Assembly (NCBI GenBank): GCA_964518625.1
Contig: CAZFHC010000001.1
Location: 111 to 64,110, forward strand
From: Candidatus Woesearchaeota archaeon
Lineage (GTDB): Archaea > Nanobdellota > Nanobdellia > Pacearchaeales > GW2011-AR1
Reading direction: 5' to 3'
Length of the DNA: 64,000 nucleotides
In this document: one piece after another, positions 2 through 64,000 of the stretch
Layout of the letters: every line of letters starts with the position of its first letter
How positions within the stretch are numbered: the first letter of the stretch is position 1
Notes under the pieces: generated by a model
What the model saw: the letters and a program-made list of their open reading frames with translations, nothing else
What the model was told of the DNA's origin: nothing
The model's database searches: none
Position numbers and translations under genes: made by a program

Positions 2-1129
2 TCTGGTAAGTCTTATACTATTGGTACTATCGCTGAGGCTTTGGCTGATCTAGGCATAGAGGAATCTGGGAATATTGCTTCTTTAATTTTTGATACTATG
101 GGTATTTATTGGACTATGAAATATAAAAATGAGAAAGATAAAAAATTACTTTCTGATTGGGATTTAAAAGCTAAGCTTCTTCCATTGAAAGTTTTTGCTC
201 CGTTTGGCTATTATCAAGATTATCTAGATAAAGGAATTTCTGTTGATTCCCCATTTGCTATTAAATTATCTGAACTTAATTCATCTGATTGGATTGGTGT
301 GTTTGAATTAAATTTTACTGATTCTGTGGCTATTGCTATTGAGGAAACTATTTCTAAATTAAAGTCTGAAAAGGATAGTTTCGACTTTAAGGATATTTAT
401 AAGAAGTTGGAATCTTTTAAAAATATTAATCAGGAAATTAAAAATGCTGCTGGTGCTTTATTTCGTGCTTCTGAGAGCTGGGGAATCTTTAATGAAGAAT
501 TTGGGACTTCTATCAATGATTTGGTTAAAGCTGGACAAAGTACTATAATTGATTTGTCGATGTATGCTTCTTTAGGAAGTTTTAATATTCGTGCTTTAAT
601 TATTGGTTTAGTTTCTAAAAAATTATTTAATCAACGTATGTTGAGTCGTAAAATAGAAGAGATTCAGGCTGTTCAGCATGGCGAAAATTACAGTCGTTTT
701 AATACTGTTCGTGATATGCCTTTAGTTTGGATTTTTATTGATGAGGCTCATGAGTTTTTACCTAAGGATGGAAAGACTCCTGCATCTGATGCTTTAATTC
801 AGATTCTAAGAGAGGGTCGTCAACCTGGATTGAGTTTGGTTGTTGCGACTCAGCAGCCTGGTAAAATTCATACTGATGCTATTACACAATCTGATATTGT
901 TATTTCTCATAGAGTTACTGCTGCTTTGGATGTTAAAGCATTAAATGATATTAGTCAATCATATTTGTATTCTAGTATTTCTGATAAAATCAATGGGTTG
1001 CCTCATTTGAAAGGTTCTGCTATTATTCTAGATGATAGTTCTGAGAGAATTTACCCTATGAGAGTTCGTCCAAGATTTACTTGGCATGGTGGTGAAGCTC
1101 CTACTGCAATTAGAAAAAATGCTGATTGA
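2..1129 (+). CDS. HerA/FtsK-like P-loop ATPase (DUF87/HerA-type), 5' end truncated by the window edge
   Basis: The frame is open from position 2. A Walker A tail (S-G-K-S/T) sits at nt 2-13. Walker B is IFIDEAHEF followed by VVATQQP. The ORF track only starts at an internal TTG at 41. Confidence 0.6.
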   Translation, partial: SGKSYTIGTIAEALADLGIEESGNIASLIFDTMGIYWTMKYKNEKDKKLLSDWDLKAKLLPLKVFAPFGYYQDYLDKGISVDSPFAIKLSELNSSDWIGVFELNFTDSVAIAIEETISKLKSEKDSFDFKDIYKKLESFKNINQEIKNAAGALFRASESWGIFNEEFGTSINDLVKAGQSTIIDLSMYASLGSFNIRALIIGLVSKKLFNQRMLSRKIEEIQAVQHGENYSRFNTVRDMPLVWIFIDEAHEFLPKDGKTPASDALIQILREGRQPGLSLVVATQQPGKIHTDAITQSDIVISHRVTAALDVKALNDISQSYLYSSISDKINGLPHLKGSAIILDDSSERIYPMRVRPRFTWHGGEAPTAIRKNAD

Positions 1130-1216: not shown

Positions 1217-3175
1217 GTGGAAAATATTAAATTTGATTTGAAATCTGGATTTAAACCTGCGGGTTCACAGCCTGAGGCGATTAAAAAATTAGGTGAAGGA
1301 TTAACCGATAATAAAAAATTTCAAACTTTGCTTGGTGTTACTGGTAGTGGTAAAACTTTTTCGATTGCTCATGTTATTAATAATGTTCAGAAAACAACTT
1401 TGGTTCTGGCTCATAATAAAACTTTAGCGGCTCAGTTGTATGAAGAATTGAAAGGATTGTTCCCTAATAATCGTGTTGAATATTTTGTTTCATATTATGA
1501 TTATTATCAACCAGAGAGTTATATGCCGGCAACGGACCAATATATTGATAAAGATAGTAGTGTAAATCCTAAATTGGATCAGTTACGTCTTGCTGCGACT
1601 GCTTCTTTATTGAGTAGAAAGGATGTTATTGTTGTTTCAAGTGTTTCATGTATCTATGGTTTAGGTAAACCTGAAAATTTTGAGATGTTTCGTTTCAGTT
1701 TGAGAGTTGGTGATAACTCTGGACGTAGAAATTTGATAAAGAAATTAGTTCATTCCCAATATGAGAGAAATGATATTGAGTTGCAACCTGGAAAATTTAG
1801 AGTGAAGGGAGATACTGTCGATTTGATTCCTGCTTATATGAATAATATTATTCGAGTTGAATTCTTTGGTGATGAAATCGAAAAAATTTGTGAATTGGAT
1901 AAAATTACTGGTGAAGTTTTAGATAATTATGAGTTTTTTTCTGTTTATCCTGCTAAGCATTTTATGGTTAATGATGATGATACTGAGAATGCTTTGATAT
2001 CTATTGAAAAAGAATTAGAGGAAATTTTACCTAGTATGGAATTGTTAGAAGCTCATAGGTTGAAACAAAGGACTTTGCATGATTTGGAAATGATCAGAGA
2101 AACTGGTTATTGTAAGGGTGTTGAAAATTATTCTAGACATTTTGATAGTAGAAAAGAGGGCGAAAGACCATATTGTTTACTTGATTATTTTCCTGATGAT
2201 TCATTAATTGTTATTGATGAAAGTCATCAGAGTATTCCACAAATTCATGGCATGTATAAGGGAGATAAAGCTAGAAAAAAAAATTTAATTGATTTTGGTT
2301 TTAGGTTACCTAGTGCTTATGATAATCGTCCTTTGAAATTCAATGAGTTTGAAAAATTTATTAGCGAAAAATTCCAGACTATTTTTGTTTCTGCTACACC
2401 TGGTGATTATGAGTTAATGAAGAGTGATGCTATTGTTGAGCAGATTATTCGTCCTACTGGTTTGATCGATCCTAAAGTTATTGTAAAGCCTCTTGATAAT
2501 CAGATTATTGATGTTAAAATTGAAATTGAGAAAGCAATTAAAAATGGTAGTAGAATTTTGTTAACAACTTTAACGAAAAAAATGGCTGAAGAATTGAGTA
2601 ATTATTTAGCTGAACAAAGAATCAAAGCAAGGTATTTGCATTCGGAAATTGATACTTTGGAAAGAATCGAAATTATTCGTGAGTTAAGGTTGGGTGAATT
2701 TGATGTTTTGGTTGGGATTAATTTACTTAGAGAGGGACTGGATATTCCTGAGGTTGGTTTTGTTGGAATTTTAGATGCTGATAAAGAAGGTTTCTTGAGA
2801 AATGATAAGAGTTTGATTCAGACTATTGGGCGTGCGGCTCGTAATAAAGATGCTAAGGTTGTTTTGTATGCTAATGTTATGACAGATTCTATTAAAAGAG
2901 CTTTGAGTGAAACTAAAAGACGTCGTGAATTACAGATTAAATATAATGAAAAATATAATATTACTCCTGTTACTATTGTAAAACCTATTAAGAAAAAGGA
3001 AATTGAAATTCGTGATACTAAGTATATTCCTGATGCTGAAGTCCCTAACTTGATTATTGGATTACAAAAAGATATGGAAGAAGCTGCTGAAAAACTGAAT
3101 TTTGAAAAAGCGATTTTCTTGAGAAACAAAATTAAAGATTTAAAGAAACGTATTTATGAAAAGAACATTTTATAA
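1217..3175 (+). CDS. uvrB: Excinuclease ABC subunit B (UvrB)
   Basis: LLGVTGSGKTF; NKTLAAQLYEELK..FP.NRVEYFVSYYDYYQPESY; VVSSVSCIYGLG; helicase C motifs; C-terminal UvrB/UvrC interaction motif (EAAEKLNFEKAIFLRNKI). GTG start. Confidence 0.9.
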   Translation: MENIKFDLKSGFKPAGSQPEAIKKLGEGLTDNKKFQTLLGVTGSGKTFSIAHVINNVQKTTLVLAHNKTLAAQLYEELKGLFPNNRVEYFVSYYDYYQPESYMPATDQYIDKDSSVNPKLDQLRLAATASLLSRKDVIVVSSVSCIYGLGKPENFEMFRFSLRVGDNSGRRNLIKKLVHSQYERNDIELQPGKFRVKGDTVDLIPAYMNNIIRVEFFGDEIEKICELDKITGEVLDNYEFFSVYPAKHFMVNDDDTENALISIEKELEEILPSMELLEAHRLKQRTLHDLEMIRETGYCKGVENYSRHFDSRKEGERPYCLLDYFPDDSLIVIDESHQSIPQIHGMYKGDKARKKNLIDFGFRLPSAYDNRPLKFNEFEKFISEKFQTIFVSATPGDYELMKSDAIVEQIIRPTGLIDPKVIVKPLDNQIIDVKIEIEKAIKNGSRILLTTLTKKMAEELSNYLAEQRIKARYLHSEIDTLERIEIIRELRLGEFDVLVGINLLREGLDIPEVGFVGILDADKEGFLRNDKSLIQTIGRAARNKDAKVVLYANVMTDSIKRALSETKRRRELQIKYNEKYNITPVTIVKPIKKKEIEIRDTKYIPDAEVPNLIIGLQKDMEEAAEKLNFEKAIFLRNKIKDLKKRIYEKNIL

Positions 3176-11022: not shown

Positions 11023-12465
11023 ATGGTAAAAAATAGTGGTGATAAGTTGGAAGAGGTTATACCTGACCATCCTATTATTGAAAAAAAGATTCAAAAAACT
11101 TTAAAATTGAGTGTTAAGGAGGGTTGTGTTGCAAATATTTCTACTTCATTGGGTCCATCATATTTTGCTCCTTTTGCTCTTGCAGTTGGTGCTACGGCTC
11201 CTCAGATAGGAATCTTAAGTGCTTTTGCTTATTTGCTTCCTGGAATCTCACAATTTAACAATTCTAGAAAATTTAAAGAAAATAAAAAGAAAAAAATCAT
11301 TGTCACTAGAATATTATTGGCTTATTCACTTTTGCTTATTTTGGCTTTTACAGGATTTTTATTTTTAAATAATTTTAATCATCTTGTTTGGGCTATTATT
11401 GCTATTGTTGGTTTATATTATTATATTATCGGTCCTGCCTCTAGTTATTGGTATGTTTGGATGGGAACTCTTGTTAAAGATAATGATAGAGCCAAATATT
11501 TTTCGAATCGTTTGAAGTTAAATCAAACAGCTGGACTTATTGCTATGATTCTATCTGCTTTATTTCTAGATTTTATGAAAAGATATAATCCTAGTTTAAC
11601 TGTTGAATATACTATTTATGCTTTTATTTTATTGTTCTTTCTTTCTTTTTTATTTAGAATAAGAGATGTTTTGTTGTTAAATAAACATTATGAGCCTCAT
11701 TTAAAGATTAAAAAAAAGGAGGAGATTTCATTTAAGAGATTTTTGAAAGAAGAACCAAAAACTCCTTTTGGAAAATTTGTTATGTTTATGGGAGTTTTTA
11801 ACCTTAGTATGGCAATTGCAAGTCCATTTTTTACTCTGTATATGTTACAGGTTTTGAATTTTTCTTATACTTGGTTTATTTTTACAACTATTGGTGCTGT
11901 CCTTTTAAATATTGTAAGCTTACCTTTGCTTAGAAAAATCTCTGATAAATATGGAAGTATCTTTTTAACAAAACTATCTTGTTTTTCTATTAGTTTGATT
12001 CCCTTATTTTGGATTTCTACTTTTTTTATTGTATTGAGTGAATTCTGGCTTTTTACTTATGTTATGTTATTTATGTCAATTCTTTATGGTATTGGAAGTG
12101 CTGGACTTATTTTAGTAGGAAGAACTTATACTTATGATGCAAATAAAACTCAAAATAGAAAATATGCTTTCCCTTATTTAAATTTGGTTGTTGGGATTGG
12201 AGCATTTATTGGTTCATTATTAGGTGCTTTGTTAGCATTCTTAGATATTAATTTGATGGGAAGTAGTTTGTTGATTATTTTTATTGTTTCTTTTGTTTTT
12301 AGAATTGTATCGACAATTGTTGGAAGTAAAAATTTACATGAAGTTAGAAAAACTGATAAATTTAAAGCTGAATATTTTATTCGTGATTTAAAACCATTTC
12401 ATTCTTTGAATAGAGGAAGTCATCGTTTTGGACACCATAATTATGAGGTAGTCCATCACATTTAA
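11023..12465 (+). CDS. Multi-pass membrane transporter (MFS-like)
   Basis: About 12 predicted hydrophobic helices with a central Lys-rich loop. No diagnostic motif. Confidence 0.45.
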   Translation: MVKNSGDKLEEVIPDHPIIEKKIQKTLKLSVKEGCVANISTSLGPSYFAPFALAVGATAPQIGILSAFAYLLPGISQFNNSRKFKENKKKKIIVTRILLAYSLLLILAFTGFLFLNNFNHLVWAIIAIVGLYYYIIGPASSYWYVWMGTLVKDNDRAKYFSNRLKLNQTAGLIAMILSALFLDFMKRYNPSLTVEYTIYAFILLFFLSFLFRIRDVLLLNKHYEPHLKIKKKEEISFKRFLKEEPKTPFGKFVMFMGVFNLSMAIASPFFTLYMLQVLNFSYTWFIFTTIGAVLLNIVSLPLLRKISDKYGSIFLTKLSCFSISLIPLFWISTFFIVLSEFWLFTYVMLFMSILYGIGSAGLILVGRTYTYDANKTQNRKYAFPYLNLVVGIGAFIGSLLGALLAFLDINLMGSSLLIIFIVSFVFRIVSTIVGSKNLHEVRKTDKFKAEYFIRDLKPFHSLNRGSHRFGHHNYEVVHHI

Positions 12466-13104: not shown

Positions 13105-14239
13105 TATGAATGTTGAAGATTTTTTTAGTAAATTTAGAAAACGAATTACTTTTAATTATGATAGATTTAAATTGTTTTTTGATGTAAATCAGTTGATTTT
13201 TAGTTCAATTTATGTTGATAAGGGAACTTTGCATTTACTTAACTCTTTTAGGAAAACTTGTAATGTAAATTATGGGCGAATTTTGGATGTTGGCTGTGGT
13301 TATGGTTCAATTGGAATTTATTTAAAAAAGAAATATTTTGATTCTTATGTAGAATGTGTTGATAGGGATGCTTTATCTTTGGAATTTTGTCAACATAATG
13401 CTATTTTAAATAATTGTAATATTAATGTTCATCCTAGTCTAGGATATAATTCTGTTGATGGTAAATTTGATTTGATTTGTTCTAATTATCCTGCTAAGGC
13501 TGGTAAAAATGCTTTGAAAGATTTTGTTTATAATGCTTCTAGATTTTTGGAAAAGGATGGTGTTTTAGCTATTGTAATTGTAAAAGAATTGGTTGAAGAT
13601 TTTAAAGATATATTAAAAGATGAAATCCAAATTATTTATGAAGAAGCCTCTAGTGGGCATGTGGTTTATCATATTAAATTTAGTGATGTTTTGAATTTTG
13701 ATGAGAATAATTATTCTAGAGGTAATAATGAATTTATTATTGGAAATGAAAAATATATTTTGGATTGTGCTTATAATATTGCTGAGTTTGAAGATATTAG
13801 TTTTTCTAGTTGTGCAATTATCGAAATTTTGAAAAATTTATCTACTAAAAAAATTGATGTAATTCGTCCTTTCCAGGGTTATTTGCCATTAGCTATTTCA
13901 TATTATTTGAAACCCGAAAAAATTAATTTAATATCTAGAGATTTGTTATCTTTGACATTCTCTTCTAAAAATTTAGAAACTTTTGGCTTCAAAAATATTA
14001 GAATATTTCATCAGTTTTTAAGTGATAATAGAAAGGGTGAGCTTCTTGTTTGGAATGTTGATAAAGAATTGGAATTTGAACAATTTAAGTTTGAGATTGC
14101 TATGGTTTTGAAAAATTTTGATACTGTTGTTATTGGTGGAAAGAAATCAAAGCTTATGCGTTTTATGAAGGATTCTGGAATTGATTATTCTAAGAAAATT
14201 GAAATTAAAAATGCTGTTGCTTTGATATTAAAAAGTTAA
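13088..14239 (+). CDS. Class I SAM-dependent methyltransferase (RsmC/RlmG-like, possibly tandem domains)
   Basis: ILDVGCGYGSIGIYL is SAM motif I. SNYPAKAG is an N/DPPF-like motif IV variant. A second degenerate half follows. Confidence 0.55.
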   Translation: MNSKINMNVEDFFSKFRKRITFNYDRFKLFFDVNQLIFSSIYVDKGTLHLLNSFRKTCNVNYGRILDVGCGYGSIGIYLKKKYFDSYVECVDRDALSLEFCQHNAILNNCNINVHPSLGYNSVDGKFDLICSNYPAKAGKNALKDFVYNASRFLEKDGVLAIVIVKELVEDFKDILKDEIQIIYEEASSGHVVYHIKFSDVLNFDENNYSRGNNEFIIGNEKYILDCAYNIAEFEDISFSSCAIIEILKNLSTKKIDVIRPFQGYLPLAISYYLKPEKINLISRDLLSLTFSSKNLETFGFKNIRIFHQFLSDNRKGELLVWNVDKELEFEQFKFEIAMVLKNFDTVVIGGKKSKLMRFMKDSGIDYSKKIEIKNAVALILKS

Positions 14240-14820
14240 GATAATTGAAGAGCTTCTTTTATTGAATCAATTGAATCAATTGCTATTTGAAAAAATATTG
14301 AAAGTTCTAATCCTGCTTTTTCTATTTCTTTTATTATTTCTCTGTTACATGTTTGAGCAAATGCTTTATTCTTGAATCTCTTTTTTAGCCCTTTAACTTG
14401 CATGTCAGATATTTTTTTACCTCGCATTAAAGCATATGCATAGATTATTCCAGTTAGTGTTTCTGATGCTGCAAGACAGTATTCTATTTTTTGTGTTCGT
14501 TGTTTATCTTTGAACTCTGGAATAATATCATGTCCATATGTATGGCTTTGCATTATTTTTATTGTCTCTTCATCAAAACCTAATTTTTTTAGCATATTTA
14601 CCATTTGTATTCCATGATTTGCAACATCATTTTTTGTATTTGCCCAATCTATATCATGTAAAAGTCCTAACATTGCCCAATATTCTTCGTTCTCTCCAAA
14701 ATATTTTGCTAATCCTTTCATAATTGCTTCGGATTCTAGATAATGATTCATTTGAGATTGATCATTGTTTAAACTTATCAAGAATTCTATTGCTTGTTCT
14801 CTTGTTATTGGTAGATTCAT
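14236..14820 (-). CDS. HD-domain phosphohydrolase
   Basis: The H...LLHDIDW motif (an HD metal-binding pair). Confidence 0.6.
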   Translation of the reverse strand: MNLPITREQAIEFLISLNNDQSQMNHYLESEAIMKGLAKYFGENEEYWAMLGLLHDIDWANTKNDVANHGIQMVNMLKKLGFDEETIKIMQSHTYGHDIIPEFKDKQRTQKIEYCLAASETLTGIIYAYALMRGKKISDMQVKGLKKRFKNKAFAQTCNREIIKEIEKAGLELSIFFQIAIDSIDSIKEALQLS

Positions 14821-17728: not shown

Positions 17729-19156
17729 CTATTTTTTCTTCTTCTTTGTGTAAAACTTAATTGCTTCTGCTAGTTCTTTGTGATTTTTTGCATATGTTTT
17801 GATACTGATTCCTTTTTTATATGCTTCACATGATTGTACTAAAGCTTTTGCTCCTGCTTTTGTTCCTTTTGGATGTGCATGACATCCTGCACCCATTGTT
17901 GTTATGAAGTCTATGCTTCCTAGAATATCTATGAATGGTTTCAATAATGTTGGATCTAATCCTCCCGAAATTATTGGAGCACATTTTTTTACACCTCTCC
18001 ATGAATCATCTTCTAATATAAGATGATGAGCCATATCTTTATGTGTTAATTTTATTGAATCTCTATCTTTTGCAGGGATTTTAGACCATGATTGTTCAAA
18101 GAAATGACCTTTTGCTTGAAATTGTAATATTCCTCTTGCTGATGTTGCATCTTCTGTTGGTGTTCCTGCCATTTTACCTACCCCTGCTGTTCCTGTGTGA
18201 ATTCCTGATGCTCCTGCTAATCTTGCAAATTTTGACAAAACCAATACTGTCATCCCTATTGGGTTTTCTGGCCTTGTAAAAGCTCCATGAGCTGCTCTAT
18301 GGAAGTGTATGAAGACCTCTGGATATCTTCTTCGTAATGTTTGTACTGCCATCCAACCTGCTGTTATACCATCTATTAAAAAAGCATAACTTCCTGGCTC
18401 AAATCCGGCATTTTTAATCATTTCACATCTTTTAATCATTGTATCAAAATCTGCAGCAGATACATTAAATGAATGAACTTTCTTCTTTTTTGTTTTCTTC
18501 ACAGCTTTGTCCATTGCTTCTTTTACATGAGCAACCATTTTTTCATAAGGACAAAAATCTTGATCTGCTTGTGGTTCATCATTTTTTACAAAATCTCCAC
18601 CACCAACCCAAAAGTCATAACAGACTTCTGCATATTCTGCTGATGTTAATCCCATCTTTGGTTTTACAATTGTTCCTAATATTGGTCTATTATAAACATT
18701 CAAATATTTTCGCATATCATCTATTGTATAACTTGGTCCATCATATTGTTCTAGCATTGCTTCTGGAAACCAAACATCTAATAATTTTAATGCTGATACT
18801 TCTTTCATCCCTAACACATTTCCTATAATGTATGTTAATATGTTTTGAACATTTCCTGTTCTATCGAATAATCTCCATGGATATGCTATCCAAACCAAAT
18901 CCCTTTTTTGATCAATTTGATAAATTAAAGCGTTCATTTCTCTTGAAAATGCTGTTTCTGTTTGAACTTTAAAGTTTGTTCCTGTTGAAGATTCTGCTGC
19001 AATTTCCGAGGCTGCTTGTAGAATATTTAATCCCTCTCCTGCTTTTAGTGTAAAAATTCCTAGAAGATATTCACCATTTTTTACATTTGGTATATCAAAG
19101 TTTACATACGCTTTTTGCTTATCATTAAGTGTTTCATAAAGTTCTTTTATATCCAT
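17729..19156 (-). CDS. rbcL: Ribulose-1,5-bisphosphate carboxylase large subunit, type III (archaeal/II-III-like)
   Basis: GGGDFVKNDEP matches the GGLDFTKDDEN active-site region. Catalytic-loop motifs (KPK.GL; HFHRAAHGA; GGLDP) are present. No small-subunit gene is nearby. Confidence 0.85.
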   Translation of the reverse strand: MDIKELYETLNDKQKAYVNFDIPNVKNGEYLLGIFTLKAGEGLNILQAASEIAAESSTGTNFKVQTETAFSREMNALIYQIDQKRDLVWIAYPWRLFDRTGNVQNILTYIIGNVLGMKEVSALKLLDVWFPEAMLEQYDGPSYTIDDMRKYLNVYNRPILGTIVKPKMGLTSAEYAEVCYDFWVGGGDFVKNDEPQADQDFCPYEKMVAHVKEAMDKAVKKTKKKKVHSFNVSAADFDTMIKRCEMIKNAGFEPGSYAFLIDGITAGWMAVQTLRRRYPEVFIHFHRAAHGAFTRPENPIGMTVLVLSKFARLAGASGIHTGTAGVGKMAGTPTEDATSARGILQFQAKGHFFEQSWSKIPAKDRDSIKLTHKDMAHHLILEDDSWRGVKKCAPIISGGLDPTLLKPFIDILGSIDFITTMGAGCHAHPKGTKAGAKALVQSCEAYKKGISIKTYAKNHKELAEAIKFYTKKKKK

Positions 19157-19625: not shown

Positions 19626-20155
19626 TGGCACTTAGGAAAGGATCTGCATATTCAAAAAGAAAGGCAAGACCTTATACTAGAAAATCTAAAGTTAGAAGTA
19701 AATCTTATATTAAAACTATTCCAAACTCAAAAGTTGTTAAATATAAGATGGGTGATATTAAAGGTTTTATTGATGAACAATTTCCTATCCAAATTCATGT
19801 TATTGCAAAGACTAGATCTCAAATCAGAGATAATCCACTTGAAGCTGTTAGACAGTATTTGAACAGATGGTTACAAAAAAAAGTTGGTAAGGATTTCTAT
19901 TTAGAAGTTAAGGTTTATCCACATCATATTTTAAGAGAAAATAAAATGCTTACTGGTGCTGGAGCTGATCGTATGCAAACTGGTATGGCTCGTGCTTTTG
20001 GAAAATCTATGGGTAGAGCTGCTATAGTAAAACCTGGACAGACACTTTTTATTGTTGGTGTTAAAACTGTAAAACATGAGATTGAAGCTAGAAAATTGAT
20101 TAAATCTATTAAAGCTAGATTACCTTGTAGTGTTGGAACAGTAACTATTAACTAA
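19625..20155 (+). CDS. rpl10e: 50S ribosomal protein L10e (uL16)
   Basis: ARPYTRKSK..YIK..P..KVVKY.MGD; GADRMQTGM..AFGK..G.AA.VKPGQ.LF is the uL16/L10e signature. Confidence 0.85.
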   Translation: MALRKGSAYSKRKARPYTRKSKVRSKSYIKTIPNSKVVKYKMGDIKGFIDEQFPIQIHVIAKTRSQIRDNPLEAVRQYLNRWLQKKVGKDFYLEVKVYPHHILRENKMLTGAGADRMQTGMARAFGKSMGRAAIVKPGQTLFIVGVKTVKHEIEARKLIKSIKARLPCSVGTVTIN

Positions 20156-22768: not shown

Positions 22769-23635
22769 TTATTTATACAAATATTTTAGTTCTTTAATTG
22801 CTGGGTTTTGAAATAATTTTTTTAATGCTTTTTTTTGAATTTGTTCTATACGTTGTTTTGTAAGATTATACTTTTTACCGATTTCCTGAAAAGTTTTTTC
22901 GTTTTCTTCTGAATTTATTCCAAATCTTTCTTTTATAATATCTGCCTCTCTTTCATTTAAACTTGAATTAATTATTTTTTCTATATCAGAAACACCGCTA
23001 CTTGATTTTAATCTATCAATATCCTTTGTTGGACTATAATAATTAGTTCCTATATTATCAACTAAAGATGTATTATCCTCTAATATTGGGTAATCTAGAG
23101 AAAGAACAGTTTTTCCAATTTCAAGTAAAGAGTTTAGTTCTTTTTTTGTCTTTGATAAAATTTTTGAAATTTTTTCTATAGAATACCCTTCTGAACGATA
23201 TACTTTTACTTTACTTAATATTTCTCTTTTTTTAAGTGGTATTCTTATGCCATATGCATTTTCACCCAATGCCTTATAAATTGATTCTTTTATCCAATTT
23301 ACACTATATGTCGATAAAGTACCAATGGAAGGATCATATTTATCTATAGCTTTCATTAAACCAATATTCCCTTCTTGAATTAAATCTATTAACTCCATAC
23401 CTTTATTTTGGTAATTTTTAGCTATGGAAAATACAAAAAATAACTGAGATTTAACCAAAACATCTCTATACTCAGGAGTCATACCTTCTTCTAGTATTTT
23501 CTTACCTATCTCTTTTTGTTCTTCAACAGATATCCTATATTTATCAGCTTCATTCAAATATATTTCTAAATTATTTTTTTTATCAGTATTCAAATATATT
23601 TCTGAATGTTCTTTATTATTAATCATATCTTTCAA
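22769..23635 (-). CDS. Bacterial-type sigma-70 family RNA polymerase sigma factor (group 3/FliA-SigB-like size)
   Basis: Region 2 is LIDLIQEGNIGLMKAIDKYDP...TYSVNWIKESIYKAL. Region 4 is LNEREADIIKERFGINSEENEKTFQEIGKKYNLTKQRIEQIQKKALKKL. Confidence 0.8.
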   Translation of the reverse strand: MKDMINNKEHSEIYLNTDKKNNLEIYLNEADKYRISVEEQKEIGKKILEEGMTPEYRDVLVKSQLFFVFSIAKNYQNKGMELIDLIQEGNIGLMKAIDKYDPSIGTLSTYSVNWIKESIYKALGENAYGIRIPLKKREILSKVKVYRSEGYSIEKISKILSKTKKELNSLLEIGKTVLSLDYPILEDNTSLVDNIGTNYYSPTKDIDRLKSSSGVSDIEKIINSSLNEREADIIKERFGINSEENEKTFQEIGKKYNLTKQRIEQIQKKALKKLFQNPAIKELKYLYK

Positions 23636-46614: not shown

Positions 46615-47616
46615 TTAGAAAAGATAGGTATTATCGTAATAAAATAGATCTGGTTTCTTTTTTTCTATTTCTTCTATTATTTCCCATGATTTTATTGCTT
46701 GTTCAATTGTTGGAAAGAAATTTTTTTCGTTATTTATAAATTTTTTAAATATTTCTAAGTATTCATTCCCTATTCCAAATTTATATTTAGTCCTATTTAT
46801 TGTTAGAAAGCTTTCTTTCTGATTTAGTGCTTTTCCTGTTGTAAATATTAGTTCTTTGTTATTTAATTTTAATTTTAATTTTACGAATGTTTCTATTATT
46901 GATTTTTTTCCTAGTTCTTTTGAATAATTTTTATATTGCCCTCTTTTGAATTCTAATATTTCGATTTTGTCTTTTAATTCTTCTTTTGATATTTTCTGTG
47001 TTATATTCAGAAAATGACTTTGTACCATATCTTTTAAGGCTCCGACTGAATTGTAATATGTTGTTCTACCTTCTAAACCTACTTCTTCTGTTGATTTGAT
47101 TTCTAGTTTTGTGAAATCTTGCTTTGGAAGATTAATTATATTTTGCTTGAATAAATAGTGATCTGATAAAAAGATGTCTTTTCCCAGATTGTTTTCTTCT
47201 ATTAATTGCTTTAATTCTTTAGCTTCTAGTAGATTACTTCCAAATGGTTTTTCTATTAATATTTTTATTGAATAGTTTAGTTCTTTGAATTTTTTTAAAG
47301 AATAAAGAATTTTTTTAATTTGTGATGGGGGAAGTGATATGTAAACATAGTTTGTTTTATTTTGGTCAAAATTTGCAATACATTTTTTCCCACAGATATC
47401 TTCTTTGTCAAAATTTAGTTTTATGTATTTGATTGATTCTTGGAATATTGGTGTACATCTATCTTCTGAACATACGTGATGTAAATATTTCTCTTGTGTT
47501 ATATTTTTTCTTCCTATTGCATAAATTTCTAATTTTTCACTATTAAAATTTTGTAAAGCTGGTAAAACTTTTCTATTAACTAAATCACCTGTTGATCCGA
47601 ATATAAAAAGTTTCAT
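46615..47616 (-). CDS. Glucose-6-phosphate dehydrogenase (Zwf)-like protein, unusually short (333 aa)
   Basis: IFGSTGDLVNRKVLPAL is the NAD(P)-binding N-terminus. IEKPFG and DHYLFKQ correspond to the G6PD EKPFG and DHYLGKE motifs. QSHFLNI matches QNHLLQ. Confidence 0.5.
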   Translation of the reverse strand: MKLFIFGSTGDLVNRKVLPALQNFNSEKLEIYAIGRKNITQEKYLHHVCSEDRCTPIFQESIKYIKLNFDKEDICGKKCIANFDQNKTNYVYISLPPSQIKKILYSLKKFKELNYSIKILIEKPFGSNLLEAKELKQLIEENNLGKDIFLSDHYLFKQNIINLPKQDFTKLEIKSTEEVGLEGRTTYYNSVGALKDMVQSHFLNITQKISKEELKDKIEILEFKRGQYKNYSKELGKKSIIETFVKLKLKLNNKELIFTTGKALNQKESFLTINRTKYKFGIGNEYLEIFKKFINNEKNFFPTIEQAIKSWEIIEEIEKKKPDLFYYDNTYLF

Positions 47617-49490: not shown

Positions 49491-50129
49491 ATGAAAACTT
49501 TAACTTTTGCTACGATTCTTTTGATTATTTTTTCATTTTTAATTGCATTATATTCTTATTCTGAAATTGATGAAGATATTGTTGCATCTCATTGGAATTC
49601 TGCGGGAGAAATTGACAATTATATGCCTAAATTTATTGGTTTATTTTTATTTCCTTTTATTTTAATTGGATTATATTTGTTATTTATTGGGATTCCCAAA
49701 GTAGATCCATTCAAAAAGAATATTGAATCATTTAGAGATAGTTATGATAAATTTATTTTTATGTTTTTTTTATATATTTTTTATGTTTTTTTATTAAGTA
49801 TTTTAGTTAATTTAGGTTACGAATTAAATATGAATCTTTTTATTATTCCTTCTCTTGGATTGTTATTTTTTTGTATTGGATTATTTATGAAAAAATTTAA
49901 AAGAAATTGGTTTATTGGGATTAGAACTCCATGGACTATTAGTAATGAAAAAGTTTGGATAAAAACTCATGAATTAGGTGCTAAACTTTTCAAAATTTTA
50001 GGAATTATTATTTTATTTAGTATATTCTTTAATCCTGAATATTTGGTCTGGTTTATCCTAATTCCTACATTTATTATCACATTTTGGTTAATATTGTATT
50101 CTTATCTAGAATTTAAAAAATTAAATTAA
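49491..50129 (+). CDS. SdpI/YhfL-family membrane protein with N-terminal DUF1648
   Basis: SHWNSAGEIDNY is the DUF1648 motif. NWFIGIRTPWTISNEKVW is the SdpI-type motif. Confidence 0.5.
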   Translation: MKTLTFATILLIIFSFLIALYSYSEIDEDIVASHWNSAGEIDNYMPKFIGLFLFPFILIGLYLLFIGIPKVDPFKKNIESFRDSYDKFIFMFFLYIFYVFLLSILVNLGYELNMNLFIIPSLGLLFFCIGLFMKKFKRNWFIGIRTPWTISNEKVWIKTHELGAKLFKILGIIILFSIFFNPEYLVWFILIPTFIITFWLILYSYLEFKKLN

Positions 50130-51184
50130 ATTTTTTCTATAAATTTTTTTAACGTTGTTTGATTATTTGATTCGTCTAAAAAATTACTTATTTTTACTCC
50201 TATTAATCTGATTGGCCACTCTTTTTGATAGTTTTGTTTTAATGCTAATTGTGTTATTTCTTTGATTTTTTCTAATGAATTTGTCATAGTATTTATTGAA
50301 TAGTCTCTTGTAATAGTTCTAAAATTTTTATATCGTAATTTTATTGAAATTGTTTTGAAGTATTTTTCTTTTATTCTTGGATGAATATTCTCGCACATTT
50401 CATTTATTGTTTTTTTTAGTTTTTCTATGTCTGTTGTATCTTTAATGAATGTATGTTCTGTTGATATCGATTTTCTACTTTTAGAATGAATTAGTTTTGT
50501 TTTTCTTTCGCCCTTTGCTATTTGTTGATATTTTATCGCTTGTAGTCCCCCGATATCCATTAATTTGAAGATATTTGCTTCTGCTAGATCAGCAATTGTA
50601 TTAATATTCTTGTTATAATATTTACTTACTGATTTTTTCCCTATTCCTGGTATCTTCTTGATATTTAGTGGAGCTAAAAATTCTTTTTGATTTTTTACAA
50701 TTGTGAATCCATTAGGTTTATTGAAATCACTTGCTATTTTTGCTGTTATTCGGCATTCGGCGATTCCTATTGAGCAGGTTAGTTTGGTTTTATTTTTGAC
50801 TGTATCTTTTATATATACTGCCATTTCTTCTAAAGTTTTAAATTGTTTTGCGAATTTTGTTAAATCAAGATATGCTTCATCGACTGAAGTTTGAATTACG
50901 TCATCTGAAAATGTATGTAAGATTTCCATTATCTGATTTGATTCTTTTTTGTATAATTGCATATTAACTGGTAAAAAATTTCCTTTTGGACAAAGTTTTT
51001 TTGCTATTTTGCCTGATGTTGCTGAGAATATACCATATTTTCTTGCTGGATAATTTGCTGCACTTACTACACCTCGTTCTGAGGTTCCTCCTACGATTAC
51101 TGGTGTTCCTTTAAGTTTTGGTTGATATTTTTCTTCACAAGCACAGAAGAAACAGTCCATATCGATATGTCCTATTATAGTCAT
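50126..51184 (-). CDS. dinB: Y-family DNA polymerase IV (DinB/Dpo4)
   Basis: IIGHIDMDCFFCACEEKY...PVIVGG; RGVVSAANYPARKYGI; SVDEAYLD; PGIGKKS. Confidence 0.85.
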   Translation of the reverse strand: MTIIGHIDMDCFFCACEEKYQPKLKGTPVIVGGTSERGVVSAANYPARKYGIFSATSGKIAKKLCPKGNFLPVNMQLYKKESNQIMEILHTFSDDVIQTSVDEAYLDLTKFAKQFKTLEEMAVYIKDTVKNKTKLTCSIGIAECRITAKIASDFNKPNGFTIVKNQKEFLAPLNIKKIPGIGKKSVSKYYNKNINTIADLAEANIFKLMDIGGLQAIKYQQIAKGERKTKLIHSKSRKSISTEHTFIKDTTDIEKLKKTINEMCENIHPRIKEKYFKTISIKLRYKNFRTITRDYSINTMTNSLEKIKEITQLALKQNYQKEWPIRLIGVKISNFLDESNNQTTLKKFIEKI

Positions 51185-54905: not shown

Positions 54906-56651
54906 CTATTTTTTATCTTCGGCTGCTTTAGCTGCATTCTCGTAAATCTTGATTCCAATCTCTTCAGAAGCACTTTTAAAATAATCAATTTCATCGTGAA
55001 TTTTTTTTGTCTTGCCAGATTCAATAGCTTTAACTAAGAATCCCATTGCATCTTCAACTTTAGTAATTGTTGCAGAATCTATTTTATCTTTATACTCCGC
55101 TATCATCTTCAAAGTTGAATAAATAATTCCTTCAGCTTCGTTTTTTGCTAATATAAAATCTCTCTTTGCTTCATCTTCAGCCTTATGATCCTTAGAATCT
55201 TTAATCATTTTCTGAATTTGTTCTTCTGATAATGATCCACCTGTTACAGTAATCTTTTGTTCTTTACCTGTTCCAAGGTCTTTAGCAGAGACATTAACTA
55301 TACCATTAGTATCAATATCGAAAGTTACTTCAACTTGAGGTATTCCTCGTGGTACTGGTAAAATACCAGCTAATTCAAATGTCCCTAAAGATTGATTGTC
55401 TGCAGCAAATTCTCTTTCTCCCTGTAAAACATTAATTGTAACTGTCTCTTGATAATCAACAGTTGTTGTAAATATATCACTCTTCTTTGTTGGGATTGTA
55501 GTGTTTCTGTCAATTAATGTTGATTTTAAACCACCATCTACTTCAATTCCAAGTGTTAATGAGGTTACATCAAGAAGTAAAATATCCTGAATATCACCGC
55601 TAATAATTGCACCTTGAATTACAGCACCTAATGAAACAGCTTCATCTGGATTAATAGAATTATCAGGAGCCATACCTGTCATCTCTTCAACGATTTCTTT
55701 AACCTTAGGAATTCTAGTACTTCCACCGACTAAAATTACTTTATCAATTTTAGGTGATTTAGCATCTTTGATTGCTTGCGTAATTGGAGCTTTTAATCTT
55801 TCGAAAATTGATTCACAAATTTCTTCAAATTTTTCTCTAGTTAAATCAATATCTAAATGTTTTGCACCATTATCATTTGTAATGATATAAGGAATCGCAA
55901 TATTTGTCTTTACTGAAGAACTTAATTCAATTTTTGCATTTTCTGCAGCTTCTCGTAATCTTTGTAATGCAATTAGATCAGAAGATAAATCAATATCATT
56001 TTCTTTTTTAAATTCTTCAATCATATAATCAATTAAAGCATTATCAATATCATCACCACCAAGATAATTATCTCCGCTTGTAGATTTAACCTCAAAAACT
56101 CCACCACCTAATTCTAAAATAGAAACATCGAATGTTCCACCACCAAAATCAAAGACTAAGATAGTATGATCATATTCTTCTTTAAGACCGTATGCTAAAG
56201 CAGCTGCTGTTGGTTCATTTATAATTCTTTTAACGTTTAAACCAGCAATAACACCTGCATCTTTTGTTGCATTTCTTTGTGCATCTCCAAAATAAGCAGG
56301 GACTGTAATTACAGCATCAGTTACTTCATGACCTAAATATTCTTCAGCGTCTTTTTTTAATTTTTTTAGAATCATAGCTGATATTTGTTCTGGGGAATAT
56401 TCTTTTTCACCAACCTTGGTTATTTTTTTAGTACCCATAAGTCTCTTAATACTTCTAATTGTTCCTTTTGGATTTGCGACTGCTCCTCTCTTTGCTATAT
56501 CACCAACAACAACTTTATCTTCTTCAATAGAAACTACGCTAGGAGTAGTATTATGCCCTTCTGTATTTTTGATTATTTTTGGTACACCACCTTCCATAAC
56601 GCTAACCGCGGAAAAAGTAGTACCTAAATCAATTCCAATTATTTTACTCAT
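54906..56651 (-). CDS. dnaK: Chaperone DnaK (Hsp70)
   Basis: [15 protein letters not shown]; [12 protein letters not shown]; [13 protein letters not shown]; C-terminal lid. Confidence 0.95.
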
Positions 56652-57088
56652 TGTGTTACCTTTACAATCTTAACTTTTGAAGCCCTTAAAAGCTTATCGT
56701 TTAGTAGATATCCTTTCTGAATCTCTTCAATGATTTTCCCATCCTTTTTACCAGGAACTTGCATTATTGCTTCATGGACATTTGGATTAAAAGTGTTGGT
56801 AGTATTAATATATTTAAGTCCATTCCTTTCTAAAATTTTAGTGAATTGGTTGTAGATTAGTTTAACTCCTTTGTCTTTACTATGTTTAAAAGATAATTCA
56901 AGGTTGTCTAAGACATCAAGCAATTGTAATACGAGATTTGCATTTGCATTTGCTAAGATATCTGTGTTTTCTTTCTCTGTTCTTTTACGAAAATTTTCAA
57001 ACTCAGCTTGCATTCGCTGTAGTCTTTCAATAAGTTCTTCTTTTGTTGGCTCTTTATTTTTTTCTTCTACCATATATTCTTTTCTCAA
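56648..57088 (-). CDS. grpE: Nucleotide exchange factor GrpE
   Basis: 146 aa. A coiled-coil N-terminus and GrpE-type beta C-terminus (GKIIEEIQKGYLLNDKLLRASKVKV). Overlaps the dnaK start. Confidence 0.75.
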   Translation of the reverse strand: MRKEYMVEEKNKEPTKEELIERLQRMQAEFENFRKRTEKENTDILANANANLVLQLLDVLDNLELSFKHSKDKGVKLIYNQFTKILERNGLKYINTTNTFNPNVHEAIMQVPGKKDGKIIEEIQKGYLLNDKLLRASKVKIVKVTQ

Positions 57089-57159
57089 AAGCCTCTTTTA
57101 AGGCTTATGTTAGTGTCCATGACAGAAATCATTTGTATGCTCAAACTTAAAAACCCAAA

Positions 57160-57708
57160 ATGAACTATATTATTATGTTAAAAATAAAAGGTAACGAAAT
57201 TGAAGAACCAAGTATTACAAACTCATTTGGTCGTAGAGCAGTCCAGCTTCAGAATAAAATTATAAATGTATTAAAGCAATTGGGAGTTGATCGTGATTAT
57301 GTAGATTTAAAGATAGAGAATATTCCGCAAAAGAAAGCTCCAGCTTCGGTATCATGGTATTATAATGGTCGTAATTTGAAATATACTTATTCACTTATGC
57401 CAAGATTTATTGAAAATCTTTATGTTATTAATAAAGTTCTAACATTAGAAGTCGAAAAATTGTTATCAGGAGAAATCACAAAAGATAAATTTGGTAGAGA
57501 ATTCTCTGAAGATGATAATTTATCTGATCAATTAACAGAAGCAAGAAAAACATTAGAAGTTAGTCCAACAGAAACTGATTTTGAAGTTATAAGTAAAAGT
57601 TACAAAAAACTCGCAAGAAAATATCATCCAGATATGTCTACTGGAGATCATAAACTATTTTTGGAAATTAATGCTGCACATAAATTGATTAATAAAGAAT
57701 TAAATTAA
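57160..57708 (+). CDS. J-domain protein with the J domain at the C-terminus (non-canonical DnaJ-like co-chaperone)
   Basis: The C-terminal DFEVISKSYKKLARKYHPDMSTGDHKLFLEINAAHKLI carries the HPD tripeptide in J-domain helix II/III context. No Zn-finger or DnaJ C-terminal domains. Confidence 0.55.
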   Translation: MNYIIMLKIKGNEIEEPSITNSFGRRAVQLQNKIINVLKQLGVDRDYVDLKIENIPQKKAPASVSWYYNGRNLKYTYSLMPRFIENLYVINKVLTLEVEKLLSGEITKDKFGREFSEDDNLSDQLTEARKTLEVSPTETDFEVISKSYKKLARKYHPDMSTGDHKLFLEINAAHKLINKELN

Positions 57709-62432: not shown

Positions 62433-62882
62433 ATGTTTACTCATAGAAATAAGAATAATCTTCATAAAAAACGTGAACCAAAAAAACCAAAAAGCAAAGA
62501 AGATACTCATAAAAATGTTCTAGAAGATATAGCTAATCATCCAGATTTAATAAAAATATGTACATCTCATTTACAAGAAACTGTTAAAGAACCAAGAATA
62601 TTCAAATACTGTAGTAAACATCAAGAGAGTCAATGTGATATAGTTTTTATATATGACAATCAACAAAAAAGATATAGTATACTAGTAGAAATCAAACCAG
62701 ATAAAGAATATCCAAGTATGAAAGCCTATAATCAATTAAAAAATACTAGCAGGATGTATTGTGATAGGAATGGATGTCCAGCAACATATCTGATGATAGT
62801 TTATTATCCATCAATGAAGACAGAAGAATTTTTAGAAAATATATTAGACAGTCATATAAATTACACATATATGAAAAAATAA
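62433..62882 (+). CDS. Hypothetical basic protein
   Basis: 149-aa ORF with a Lys-rich N-terminus and several Cys. Confidence 0.3.
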   Translation: MFTHRNKNNLHKKREPKKPKSKEDTHKNVLEDIANHPDLIKICTSHLQETVKEPRIFKYCSKHQESQCDIVFIYDNQQKRYSILVEIKPDKEYPSMKAYNQLKNTSRMYCDRNGCPATYLMIVYYPSMKTEEFLENILDSHINYTYMKK

Positions 62883-64000
62883 TTATTTTTTGTAACAAGA
62901 ATTTTTTATGTGTTTTTTTGCCGCGAATGTTTTTGTAAATTTTAACCAATCTCTTGATGGACCATTAGATTTTGAAGATACAATTATTTCTACTATATCT
63001 TCGTTCTTTAATGTAGTTGACAAAGCTACCATTTTACCATTTACTTTTGCTCCCATACATTTATTCCCAATTTCTGTATGAATCGCATATGCGAAATCTA
63101 CCGGAGTTGAATCTTTTTGTAAATGGATAATTTTGCCTTTTGGAGATTGAACAAATATTTCACCTTCATACAAATCTACCTTAAATGCATTAATTAATTC
63201 TTCATTTGTCATTGAATTACTTTGTTCAATTAATTCTCTTATCTGTTTTAGTTTTGTATCAAAAGAATTCATTTTTATTCTTTTTTCTTTGTAAACCCAA
63301 TGAGCTGAAATCCCAAATTCAGAATTTTTATGCATTTCAAATGTTCTTATTTGTATTTCTACTGGTATTGAATTGAATAGAACAGTTGTATGAAGTGACT
63401 GATATCCATTAAATTTTGGAAGAATTATATAATCTTTAAATCGCCCTATTAATGGAGTAAATTCTTCTTGTATTTTCCCTAAGACTGTATAACATTCTGG
63501 AATAGTCTTTACTAATATTCTAAATGCTATCATATCATAAATTTGACTTAAATCGCAATTTTTATTCATTGTTTTTCTATATATACTATAAATATGTTTT
63601 TTACGTCCCATAACTTCTCCATCAACATTTAATAACTTTAACATAGAAGTAAGATTTTTATTAATTGATGCGATTATTATTTTCGATCCTTTAAACTCTT
63701 CATCAATCTTTGTCTCTATTTTTTCATATATTTTTGGATTTAAAACCTTAAATGACCTATCTTCAAGTTCACTTTTTATCTTTGACAATCCCAAATTTGA
63801 TGCAAGTGGAGCAAAAATATCTAAATTGATTTTAACTTTATATTCTTGTTCTTTTTTTGTATACATATTTATACTTCGCATTTCTGCCAAAGCAAAAGCT
63901 AGTCTAATAAATATAACTCTTATATCTCTTGAAATCGCTAGAAACATACGTCTAATATTTTTGGCTTCGTCTTTTTTATTAGTATTAAGATTCGTTTTAT
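62883..64000 (-). CDS. RelA/SpoT-family (p)ppGpp synthetase/hydrolase with TGS domain, N-terminus beyond the window edge
   Basis: The end of the HD domain (NIRRMFLAISRDIRVIFIRLAFALAEMRSI, against the RelA pattern DIRVILIKLADRLHNMRTL). The synthetase domain (GRKKHIYSIYRKTMNK....IYDMIAFRILV; YQSLHTTV; IQIRTFEMHKNSEFGISAHWVYKE). The TGS domain (IFVQSPKGKIIHLQKDSTPVDFAYAIHTEIGNKCMGAKVNGKMV). The frame stays open past nt 64000. Confidence 0.75.
   Translation of the reverse strand, partial: KTNLNTNKKDEAKNIRRMFLAISRDIRVIFIRLAFALAEMRSINMYTKKEQEYKVKINLDIFAPLASNLGLSKIKSELEDRSFKVLNPKIYEKIETKIDEEFKGSKIIIASINKNLTSMLKLLNVDGEVMGRKKHIYSIYRKTMNKNCDLSQIYDMIAFRILVKTIPECYTVLGKIQEEFTPLIGRFKDYIILPKFNGYQSLHTTVLFNSIPVEIQIRTFEMHKNSEFGISAHWVYKEKRIKMNSFDTKLKQIRELIEQSNSMTNEELINAFKVDLYEGEIFVQSPKGKIIHLQKDSTPVDFAYAIHTEIGNKCMGAKVNGKMVALSTTLKNEDIVEIIVSSKSNGPSRDWLKFTKTFAAKKHIKNSCYKK

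Follow-up and report, generated by a model that had tools for sequence, protein, structure and literature searches.

Whether archaea make use of the alarmone (p)ppGpp is the question raised by a gene at the end of a 64,000-nucleotide stretch of archaeal DNA (positions 111–64,110 of contig CAZFHC010000001.1, assembly GCA_964518625.1, deposited as Candidatus Woesearchaeota archaeon), referred to here in its entirety as the window. No (p)ppGpp has been found in archaeal model organisms (PMC8646023). The gene encodes a RelA/SpoT homologue (RSH) that presents itself as a short candidate (456 amino acids), held under purifying selection and with an intact predicted synthetase site. Judged from sequence comparisons and a structure model, it probably specifies a monofunctional, ribosome-independent (p)ppGpp synthetase, composed of a pseudo-HD domain, a synthetase (SYNTH) domain and a TGS domain, that appears to have been acquired once by horizontal transfer.

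Identification of the complete RSH gene

Translation of the minus strand (62883–63998) gave 371 codons without a stop, unbroken up to the window edge and terminated by TAA, which appears on the forward strand as its reverse complement 'tta' at 62883–62885. A first-pass annotation of this DNA had described an RSH-type frame open at the window edge, and the open reading frame (ORF), the motifs that it quoted (GRKKHIYSIY, QIRTFEMH and AHWVYKE, all present in the 371-codon translation) and the Pfam domains agreed with that description; the strand, which had been left unstated, is minus. Pfam searches with the fragment returned a complete RelA_SpoT domain (PF04607, E = 1e-36), a complete TGS domain (PF02824, E = 1e-23) and only the C-terminal part of HD_4 (profile positions 89–155 of 156, the last 67 positions; E = 4e-13). 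The NCBIfam spoT_relA model matched the fragment with E = 2e-121, and the top solved-structure match by sequence was Bacillus subtilis Rel (6yxa, E = 3e-99). These domain and structure-match scores are far beyond chance.

The part of the gene lying past nt 64000, the recovery of which had been suggested as a check, was obtained from ENA contig k141_643719 (locus L001), which aligned to the final 8 kb of the window with 0 mismatches. The complete protein (P0001) is 456 amino acids long and begins at a TTG codon at window-equivalent position 64253, a start site matched by those of its orthologues. Full-length P0001 scored 428 bits (E = 5e-128) with the TIGR00691 spoT_relA model; the missing C-terminus, described below, leaves this score short of the curated cut-off of 499. 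A search of 5.8 billion proteins gave only five clusters of close relatives, with lengths of 454–462 amino acids and identities of 74–78% over the 371-residue fragment and 70–75% over the full protein; these form the archaeal clade of the comparisons that follow.

The synthetase and TGS domains are conserved

For residue checks, a combination of HMMER alignments to solved Rel/RelA structures and a 55-sequence MAFFT alignment was used. All SYNTH residues are kept (G240, R241, K243, D264, R269, RxKD, Y308, Q309, H312, E324, Q326 and R328), and they were invariant across 49 homologues (alignment A1). Membership of the RSH superfamily follows from the SYNTH domain and its catalytic residues, including those of the G-R-x-K-H loop. 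The charge motif in the archaeal clade is RFKD or RYKD, corresponding to the RxKD of Rel-type enzymes and not to the ExDD of RelA. As in long RSHs, a TGS domain follows SYNTH, and it retains the equivalent of histidine H420, the residue with which the TGS domains of RelA and Rel recognise the 3'-CCA end of tRNA. Within the archaeal clade, TGS (84% identity, the most conserved domain) and SYNTH (80%) are the best-conserved parts of the protein.

The AlphaFold model of P0001 (pLDDT 83, pTM 0.77) comprised a helical pseudo-HD domain (residues 1–207), an alpha/beta SYNTH domain and a beta-grasp TGS domain. Foldseek searches with this model gave B. subtilis Rel (6yxa, 2e-29), ribosome-bound RelA and SpoT as top matches. 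Identity to B. subtilis Rel was 36% over the 480 columns aligned by Foldseek, and the HMMER alignment of the two proteins spans residues 32–451.

Formation of a product other than (p)ppGpp, either (pp)pApp or a tRNA pyrophosphorylated at its 3' end, was also considered. The RSH SYNTH fold supports such chemistries in some small RSHs (Tas1 and FaRel2/CapRel), and the retained TGS domain is one that binds tRNA CCA ends in relatives. We nevertheless regard this as quite unlikely, given that the guanine-contacting and catalytic residues (Y308, Q309, H312, RxKD and E324) are invariant and that the identity to B. subtilis Rel is maintained at the level given above.

The HD domain is a pseudo-hydrolase

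An HD_4-type domain (PF13328) lies upstream of SYNTH, as is the case in long RSHs, and the first-pass annotation had taken it for an HD hydrolase. Its residues were numbered according to Rel_Seq and B. subtilis Rel, with B. subtilis residues 1–55 cross-checked against the canonical Rel proteins of loci L008–L011. All eight of the hydrolase residues checked (R44, H53, H77, D78, E81, D82, D144 and N148) are replaced in the five archaeal proteins, where the corresponding positions are occupied, in the same order, by S/N/E/K, I, Y/F, F/I, T/A/V/S, H, F and E. In P0001, LYFPYTHNH stands in place of FLHDVVEDT and AFALAEMRS in place of ADRLHNMRT, the equivalents of D144 and N148 being F and E. The canonical Rel proteins (those of loci L008–L011 and B. 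subtilis) retain R, H, HD, ED, D and N, whereas in the sister bacterial group described below the hydrolase residues are likewise replaced in every sampled member.

The HD domain is a pseudo-hydrolase, and the enzyme is predicted from these substitutions to be synthetase-only and not bifunctional. Replacement of all the catalytic residues checked rules out an active hydrolase and, with it, membership of the bifunctional Rel/SpoT group, which carries the active HD catalytic set. Conservation of catalytic residues, which had been put forward for checking in both domains, was borne out for the synthetase and not for the His/Asp motif of HD; of the degeneracy of both domains, which had been named as counting against the proposal, only that of HD was found, with SYNTH intact.

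The C-terminal ribosome-docking domains have been lost

P0001 ends 32 amino acids past TGS, at the first helix that follows this domain, and no match to PF19296, PF28438 or ACT was found in the protein; the AH, RIS/ZFD and ACT/RRM domains, with which long RSHs dock onto the ribosome, are absent. The description of the protein as a long RSH therefore holds for the pseudo-HD fold, SYNTH and TGS and fails for the full length. The truncation point corresponds to the start of the AH domain in bacterial relatives, and the archaeal orthologues all end at one shared alignment position (5/5). Bacterial sister proteins run on for ~150 amino acids, through AH and RIS, and one of them (P0006) passes the TIGR00691 cut-off of 499 with a score of 559. 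The possibility that the gene is split and that AH/RIS are encoded separately further downstream, as for bacterial P0055 (locus L017), was ruled out, as no such remnant lies beside any archaeal copy.

Two further short proteins of HD-SYNTH-TGS order that end just past TGS, P0314 (484 amino acids) and P0326 (504 amino acids), were also noted. Both keep an intact HD motif (GLLHDTVEDT/ADRTHNMRT) and, being only ~38–40% identical, were rejected as kin of the archaeal clade and treated as unrelated truncations. Since these proteins end after TGS and have an intact HD domain, loss of AH, RIS and ACT has occurred more than once among long RSHs.

The gene belongs to an archaeal host

The window encodes the archaeal markers S19e and L10e (ribosomal proteins), PCNA, class-I lysyl-tRNA synthetase (LysRS) and a form III-like RuBisCO, and has a GC content of ~28%. 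Its LysRS is 63–81% identical to >120 protein clusters, and the named ones are annotated as 'Candidatus Pacearchaeota archaeon' or 'Nanoarchaeota archaeon'. These marker genes and the relatives of LysRS mark the host as a DPANN archaeon of Pacearchaeota type, in keeping with the earlier placing of the RSH gene in an archaeon.

Bacterial contamination, or a chimeric assembly at the contig end, would account for the position of the gene at the window edge and for the bacterial identity of its nearest relatives once the five-member clade is set aside. Against this, the ENA and Logan assemblies, which are independent, both contain the junction between the RSH gene and its convergent neighbour, a JGI assembly contains the identical RSH protein, and L001, with its exact match to the last 8 kb of the window, extends 8.9 kb past it at the same low GC. 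The GC content at third codon positions is 0.153 for the RSH gene, as compared with 0.163 ± 0.027 for the window genes, and its codon-usage distance to the window mean ranks with the smallest in a set of 43 genes. Orthologues are embedded in contigs that reach 134 kb and 635 kb. Mis-assembly, which the first-pass annotation had named as a possible undoing of its proposal, is excluded for practical purposes, and we consider bacterial contamination to be extremely improbable.

A probable single transfer from a bacterial donor

Outside the archaeal clade, the next matches are at most 55% identical, 600–700 amino acids long, carry AH and RIS and share the same dead hydrolase site; those that are named come from Christensenellales or Clostridia metagenome-assembled genomes (MAGs). 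A scan of GTDB genomes gave bacterial loci only (Clostridia, Polyangia, Myxococcota, Saccharibacteria and Spirochaetaceae), which served as comparators and not as relatives. When a protein library is clustered at 50% identity, the members of the archaeal clade fall into one cluster (representative P0003), and the representative that comes next shares 50% identity and is bacterial-like. As the clade stands alone at this level of clustering, the RSHs of other DPANN archaea were probably acquired separately.

A neighbour-joining tree was built from 437 columns with 200 bootstraps. The five archaeal proteins were monophyletic in 200/200 replicates, and their sister (79%) was a group that includes a 'Christensenellales bacterium' protein. 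This pair is nested in a clade of Clostridia RSHs with pseudo-HD domains, with canonical Rel and E. coli RelA lying outside. The sister-clade contig is bacterial, as it encodes GreA and HolB (DNA polymerase III delta'). The horizontal transfer proposed at the outset is thus upheld by the nesting of the archaeal clade in a bacterial pseudo-HD group.

The contigs that carry the orthologues have GC contents of 24–30%. The 134-kb contig bears archaeal S19e, L31e and EF-1alpha, and the 635-kb contig shares one 51%-identical protein with the window. Flanking genes common to pairs of orthologues (NTP-transferase, 81% identity; Na/Ca exchanger, 45%) point to partial synteny. Pairwise dN/dS values among the five orthologues were 0.08–0.19.

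On this evidence, one old bacterium-to-archaeon transfer into the ancestor of a small Pacearchaeota sub-clade, from a Clostridia/Christensenellales-like donor, is strongly supported. The same grade of support applies to a donor copy that was already hydrolase-dead; the loss of the hydrolase site predates the transfer and is common to a large, conserved clade of bacterial proteins. It likewise applies to removal of AH and RIS/ZFD in the archaeal line at a single shared position, with ACT already absent in the nearest bacterial relatives, and to vertical descent under purifying selection since the transfer.

The possibility of a decaying or non-enzymatic relic, heading for loss or serving only to bind tRNA or nucleotides, draws on the loss of two ancestral functions (hydrolysis and ribosome docking) and on the rarity of the gene in the host lineage, with 5 RSH ortholog clusters as compared with >120 LysRS clusters of comparable divergence. 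It appears improbable in view of an ORF that is intact in five lineages differing at 22–30% of residues, the low dN/dS values, the invariance of all synthetase catalytic residues and a loss of the hydrolase site that is older than the transfer.

Proposed function

In the proposed mechanism, the SYNTH domain would use ATP as pyrophosphate donor and the 3'-OH of GDP or GTP as acceptor, giving (p)ppGpp, with the pseudo-HD domain acting only as a structural or allosteric scaffold, so that the product would not be hydrolysed by the enzyme itself. Activity is predicted to be ribosome-independent: the 70S-anchoring domains have been lost and the host ribosome is archaeal, so activation by ribosome-bound deacylated tRNA is unlikely. 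Control may instead be exerted via expression level, via the retained TGS domain, or both; this domain might respond to the 3'-CCA ends of uncharged tRNA that is not on the ribosome, or it might exert autoinhibition on the catalytic half. Removal of the product could be achieved by another enzyme (a small alarmone hydrolase or a Nudix protein) or by dilution. A role in interference with a bacterial host or partner, as the first-pass annotation had ventured, finds no backing, as neither an N-terminal signal peptide (judged by eye) nor an export system nearby was seen.

Several points weigh against a once-transferred, monofunctional (p)ppGpp synthetase. No partner hydrolase was found in the window, which represents less than ~10% of the genome. 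Hydrolase-free synthetase is toxic in bacteria (PMC3153485), and unregulated activity would therefore be a problem; the route of degradation and the archaeal targets of (p)ppGpp are the weak points of the proposal. In addition, the phylogeny is a distance tree on a sample of hits, and its sister-group support is just 79%. Even so, we hold this assignment to be the probable one. The only HD protein of the window, encoded at 14236–14820, was examined as a partner hydrolase and rejected, being a generic PF01966 HD protein and not of the HD_4 type.

A more far-reaching possibility, which we put forward tentatively and think rather doubtful, is that the Pacearchaeota sub-clade runs a genuine alarmone system, the first in Archaea, in which a TGS-gated, ribosome-independent synthetase would turn the level of uncharged tRNA into (p)ppGpp that acts on archaeal GTPases or nucleotide metabolism. 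If true, a bacterial stringent-response sensor would have been rewired to run without the bacterial ribosome.

Features of the locus and its surroundings

The features of the RSH gene are collected in Table 1. Its stop codon is in zero-gap contact with that of a convergent ORF of 149 amino acids, for which no Pfam match was found. The 149-residue protein occurs on two public contigs, both of which also bear the RSH gene, and the adjacency is not kept beside the RSH orthologues. No tRNA gene and no Rfam family (gathering threshold) was found in the 64-kb window, and the flanking region likewise gave nothing.

Table 1. Positions of the RSH gene, its domains and motifs, and the convergent neighbour (window coordinates)
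Feature	Position	Strand	Basis
RSH gene, C-terminal 371 codons and stop; full 456 codons reach window-equivalent 64253	62883–64000	minus	Open frame, P0001, L001
Predicted pseudo-hydrolase (HD_4 fold), C-terminal half	63786–63986	minus	Pfam HD_4, E = 4e-13
AFALAEMRS, degenerate, replaces ADRLHNMRT	63873–63899	minus	Alignment
LYFPYTHNH, with Y-F at the expected HD motif positions	Window-equivalent 64074–64100, just beyond the window	minus	Alignment
RelA_SpoT/SYNTH domain, predicted active site intact	63282–63608	minus	PF04607, E = 1e-36
SYNTH motif GRKKHIYSIYRK	63573–63608	minus	Conserved motif
SYNTH motif IYDMIAFRI (D264 equivalent)	63516–63542	minus	Conserved motif
SYNTH motif RFKD	63432–63443	minus	Conserved motif
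SYNTH motif NGYQSLHT (Y308 equivalent)	63387–63410	minus	Conserved motif
SYNTH motif EIQIRT (E324 equivalent)	63342–63359	minus	Conserved motif
TGS domain, beta-grasp	62982–63158	minus	PF02824, E = 1e-23
TGS motif DFAYAIHTEIGN, with the histidine equivalent to H420 of B. subtilis Rel	63063–63098	minus	Alignment
Short C-terminal tail, residues 425–456 (truncation point)	62886–62981	minus	Alignment with bacterial relatives
Convergent 149-aa ORF, context only	62433–62882	plus	Stop abuts RSH stop

The surroundings of the gene bear on a possible role in defence by abortive infection, in which the enzyme would be held off until virus attack and a flood of alarmone, or tRNA modification, would then arrest growth in the manner of toxic small alarmone synthetases (toxSAS) such as CapRel. 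In this strain the RSH gene borders a variable region, just upstream and beyond the window, with a SoFic/PDC-S04-like Fic gene and an AbiEi/AbiEii pair, and the orthologue at locus L014 adjoins type I restriction fragments and an element with type IV secretion (T4SS) and integrase genes. The SYNTH domain matches PADLOC candidate PDC-S33 (E = 9e-14), and the neighbouring 149-residue ORF weakly matches PDC-M47B (E = 9e-5). However, the PDC-S33 match is limited to the shared SYNTH domain, and the pseudo-HD/SYNTH/TGS architecture and the phylogeny are those of a housekeeping long Rel, not of a single-domain toxSAS. No conserved antitoxin-like neighbour is present, neighbours vary among the orthologues, and those at L012 and L013 lie amid ordinary genes. 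A defence function is accordingly judged unlikely.

The variable region itself, at 11923–20450 of L001 (window-equivalent ~64355–72882), is cassette-like in its organisation. It carries genes for Fic, a 144-residue ORF, peptidase S9, GNAT and AbiEii with AbiEi, spaced by 5–7 copies of a 60–90-nt GC-rich element with the consensus ..CACACTCCAACCGCGTAGACAGCAGCGGGTGCCGGATTTAAGGGTGGAG.., of which both the 64-kb window and the other loci gave 0 copies. As a conserved RNA the element was rejected, with no Rfam match, a weak hairpin and no covariation. The series may represent an attC-like cassette array, a reading suggested because integrons are known in archaea (PMC9668308). The Fic gene is flanked by a 300-nt direct repeat, 95% identical between its two copies (L001 11923–12222 and 13667–13966), and three 36-nt repeats ending in GGGGACTGAAAGGTCAAAA follow one another with a period of 87–88 nt at L001 12337–12547.

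Two of the orthologue contigs yielded further observations. At 19724–20416 of L012, the 635-kb contig that bears RSH orthologue P0003, lies a gene for a GGDEF-domain protein, a second bacterial-type nucleotide second-messenger enzyme in an RSH-bearing lineage; that this contig is archaeal we infer from its low GC and the single protein that it shares with the window. Beside orthologue P0004, the region L014 11406–21365 contains the type I restriction fragments together with a VirB4/TraC-like ATPase, a TrbC/T4SS pilin, an N6/N4 methyltransferase and a phage-type integrase, a gene set that resembles a conjugative element integrated into this contig, which is low in GC and Pacearchaeota-like.

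Elsewhere in the window, a minus-strand ORF of 288 amino acids next to PCNA (22769–23635) matches Sigma70 regions 2, 3 and 4 (E = 4e-14, 7e-4 and 8e-14, respectively, the region 3 match being below the Pfam cut-off). This bacterial-type sigma factor in an archaeal window has no obvious RNA polymerase partner and is another bacterial import. Bacterial-type genes are also scattered at 54906–57708 (a DnaK/GrpE/DnaJ cluster, from Pfam), 1217–3175 (a UvrB-like gene, from sequence only) and 50126–51184 (a DinB/IMS polymerase). The RuBisCO large-subunit homologue (17729–19156, minus strand, 475 amino acids, RuBisCO_large E = 3e-89) adjoins a SAM-dependent RNA methyltransferase and looks like a form III enzyme, a type common in DPANN nucleotide salvage. 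A glucose-6-phosphate dehydrogenase-like ORF of 333 amino acids (46615–47616, minus strand) matches G6PD_N in full and G6PD_C only at positions 20–60 of 296, and may be a truncated or divergent enzyme. An ORF at 41–1129 (plus strand) gives a weak Zot-like P-loop match (E = 3e-4, 20.9 bits against a cut-off of 20.3 bits) and may be virus- or plasmid-derived.

Comparison with known systems

In the RSH survey of Atkinson et al. (2011), Archaea yielded no long RSH and just a few small synthetases or hydrolases, these in euryarchaea (PMC3153485). RelA/SpoT of predicted bacterial origin was subsequently reported by Li et al. (2021) at frequencies of 69% (Diapherotrites), 42% (Woesearchaeota), 21% (Pacearchaeota) and 19% (Nanoarchaeota) (PMC8407392), and with these frequencies the view that only a few archaea encode RSH homologues, as adopted in the first-pass annotation, is outdated for DPANN. 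Bacterial-derived RelA/SpoT in DPANN is therefore already published, and the present gene is of modest novelty, a known family with a domain-loss twist. The survey of Li et al. gives frequencies only, with no architecture, catalytic-residue analysis or donor lineage (PMC8407392). What is added here is the pseudo-HD/SYNTH/TGS-only architecture, a residue-level prediction of synthetase-only activity, a probable donor lineage, and evidence for a single transfer followed by vertical inheritance. Having naturally lost the hydrolase site as well as the ribosome-docking domains, the protein offers a natural experiment on the regulation of a long RSH by TGS alone. The value of the gene is tempered by the existing literature on DPANN RelA/SpoT and by an uncultured organism.

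The closest known proteins are RSHs of Clostridia/Christensenellales (P0006; P0015, 'MAG: RelA/SpoT family protein [Christensenellales bacterium]'; and P0244; ~600–700 amino acids), which are 48–55% identical and make up the sister and enclosing clades. Common to them and the archaeal clade are the replaced hydrolase residues, the SYNTH residues, RxKD and the TGS histidine. Unlike the archaeal proteins, they go on with RelA_AH and RelA_RIS, and their hosts are bacterial; P0244 (682 amino acids) has ~80 further C-terminal residues, possibly ACT.

Bifunctional Rel of Firmicutes (B. subtilis 6yxa and Rel_Seq 1vj7) is the top match in both sequence and structure (E = 2e-104; Foldseek 2e-29) and has the same order of HD fold, SYNTH and TGS together with RxKD, but it possesses an active HD hydrolase as well as AH, RIS and ACT, and the archaeal N-terminus is ~24 amino acids shorter. 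Small alarmone synthetases and toxSAS (RelQ/RelP, FaRel and CapRel) share the SYNTH fold (Foldseek 1e-6 to 1e-7; PDC-S33) and are similarly without a working hydrolase. Unlike these single-domain enzymes, the archaeal protein keeps its pseudo-HD and TGS domains and branches within the long RSHs, and with three domains and neighbours that are not conserved it does not belong to this group.

Escherichia coli RelA also has a pseudo-HD domain and is a monofunctional synthetase, as the archaeal protein is predicted to be. The two differ in the charge motif (RxKD, not ExDD) and in tree placement, the archaeal clade lying outside RelA, and the NF008124 equivalog score is 296 against a cut-off of 728; on these three counts, orthology with beta/gamma-proteobacterial RelA was ruled out, and loss of the hydrolase was independent of that in E. 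coli RelA. In E. coli RelA, synthesis resides in the N-terminal domain (residues 1–455) and regulation in the C-terminal domain (PMC7669825). The archaeal protein, at 456 amino acids, is of nearly the same length as the RelA' fragment (residues 1–455) encoded by plasmid pALS13, which may by analogy be its closest functional counterpart; expression of truncated RelA' from pALS13 leads to constitutive ppGpp accumulation (PMC2586660).

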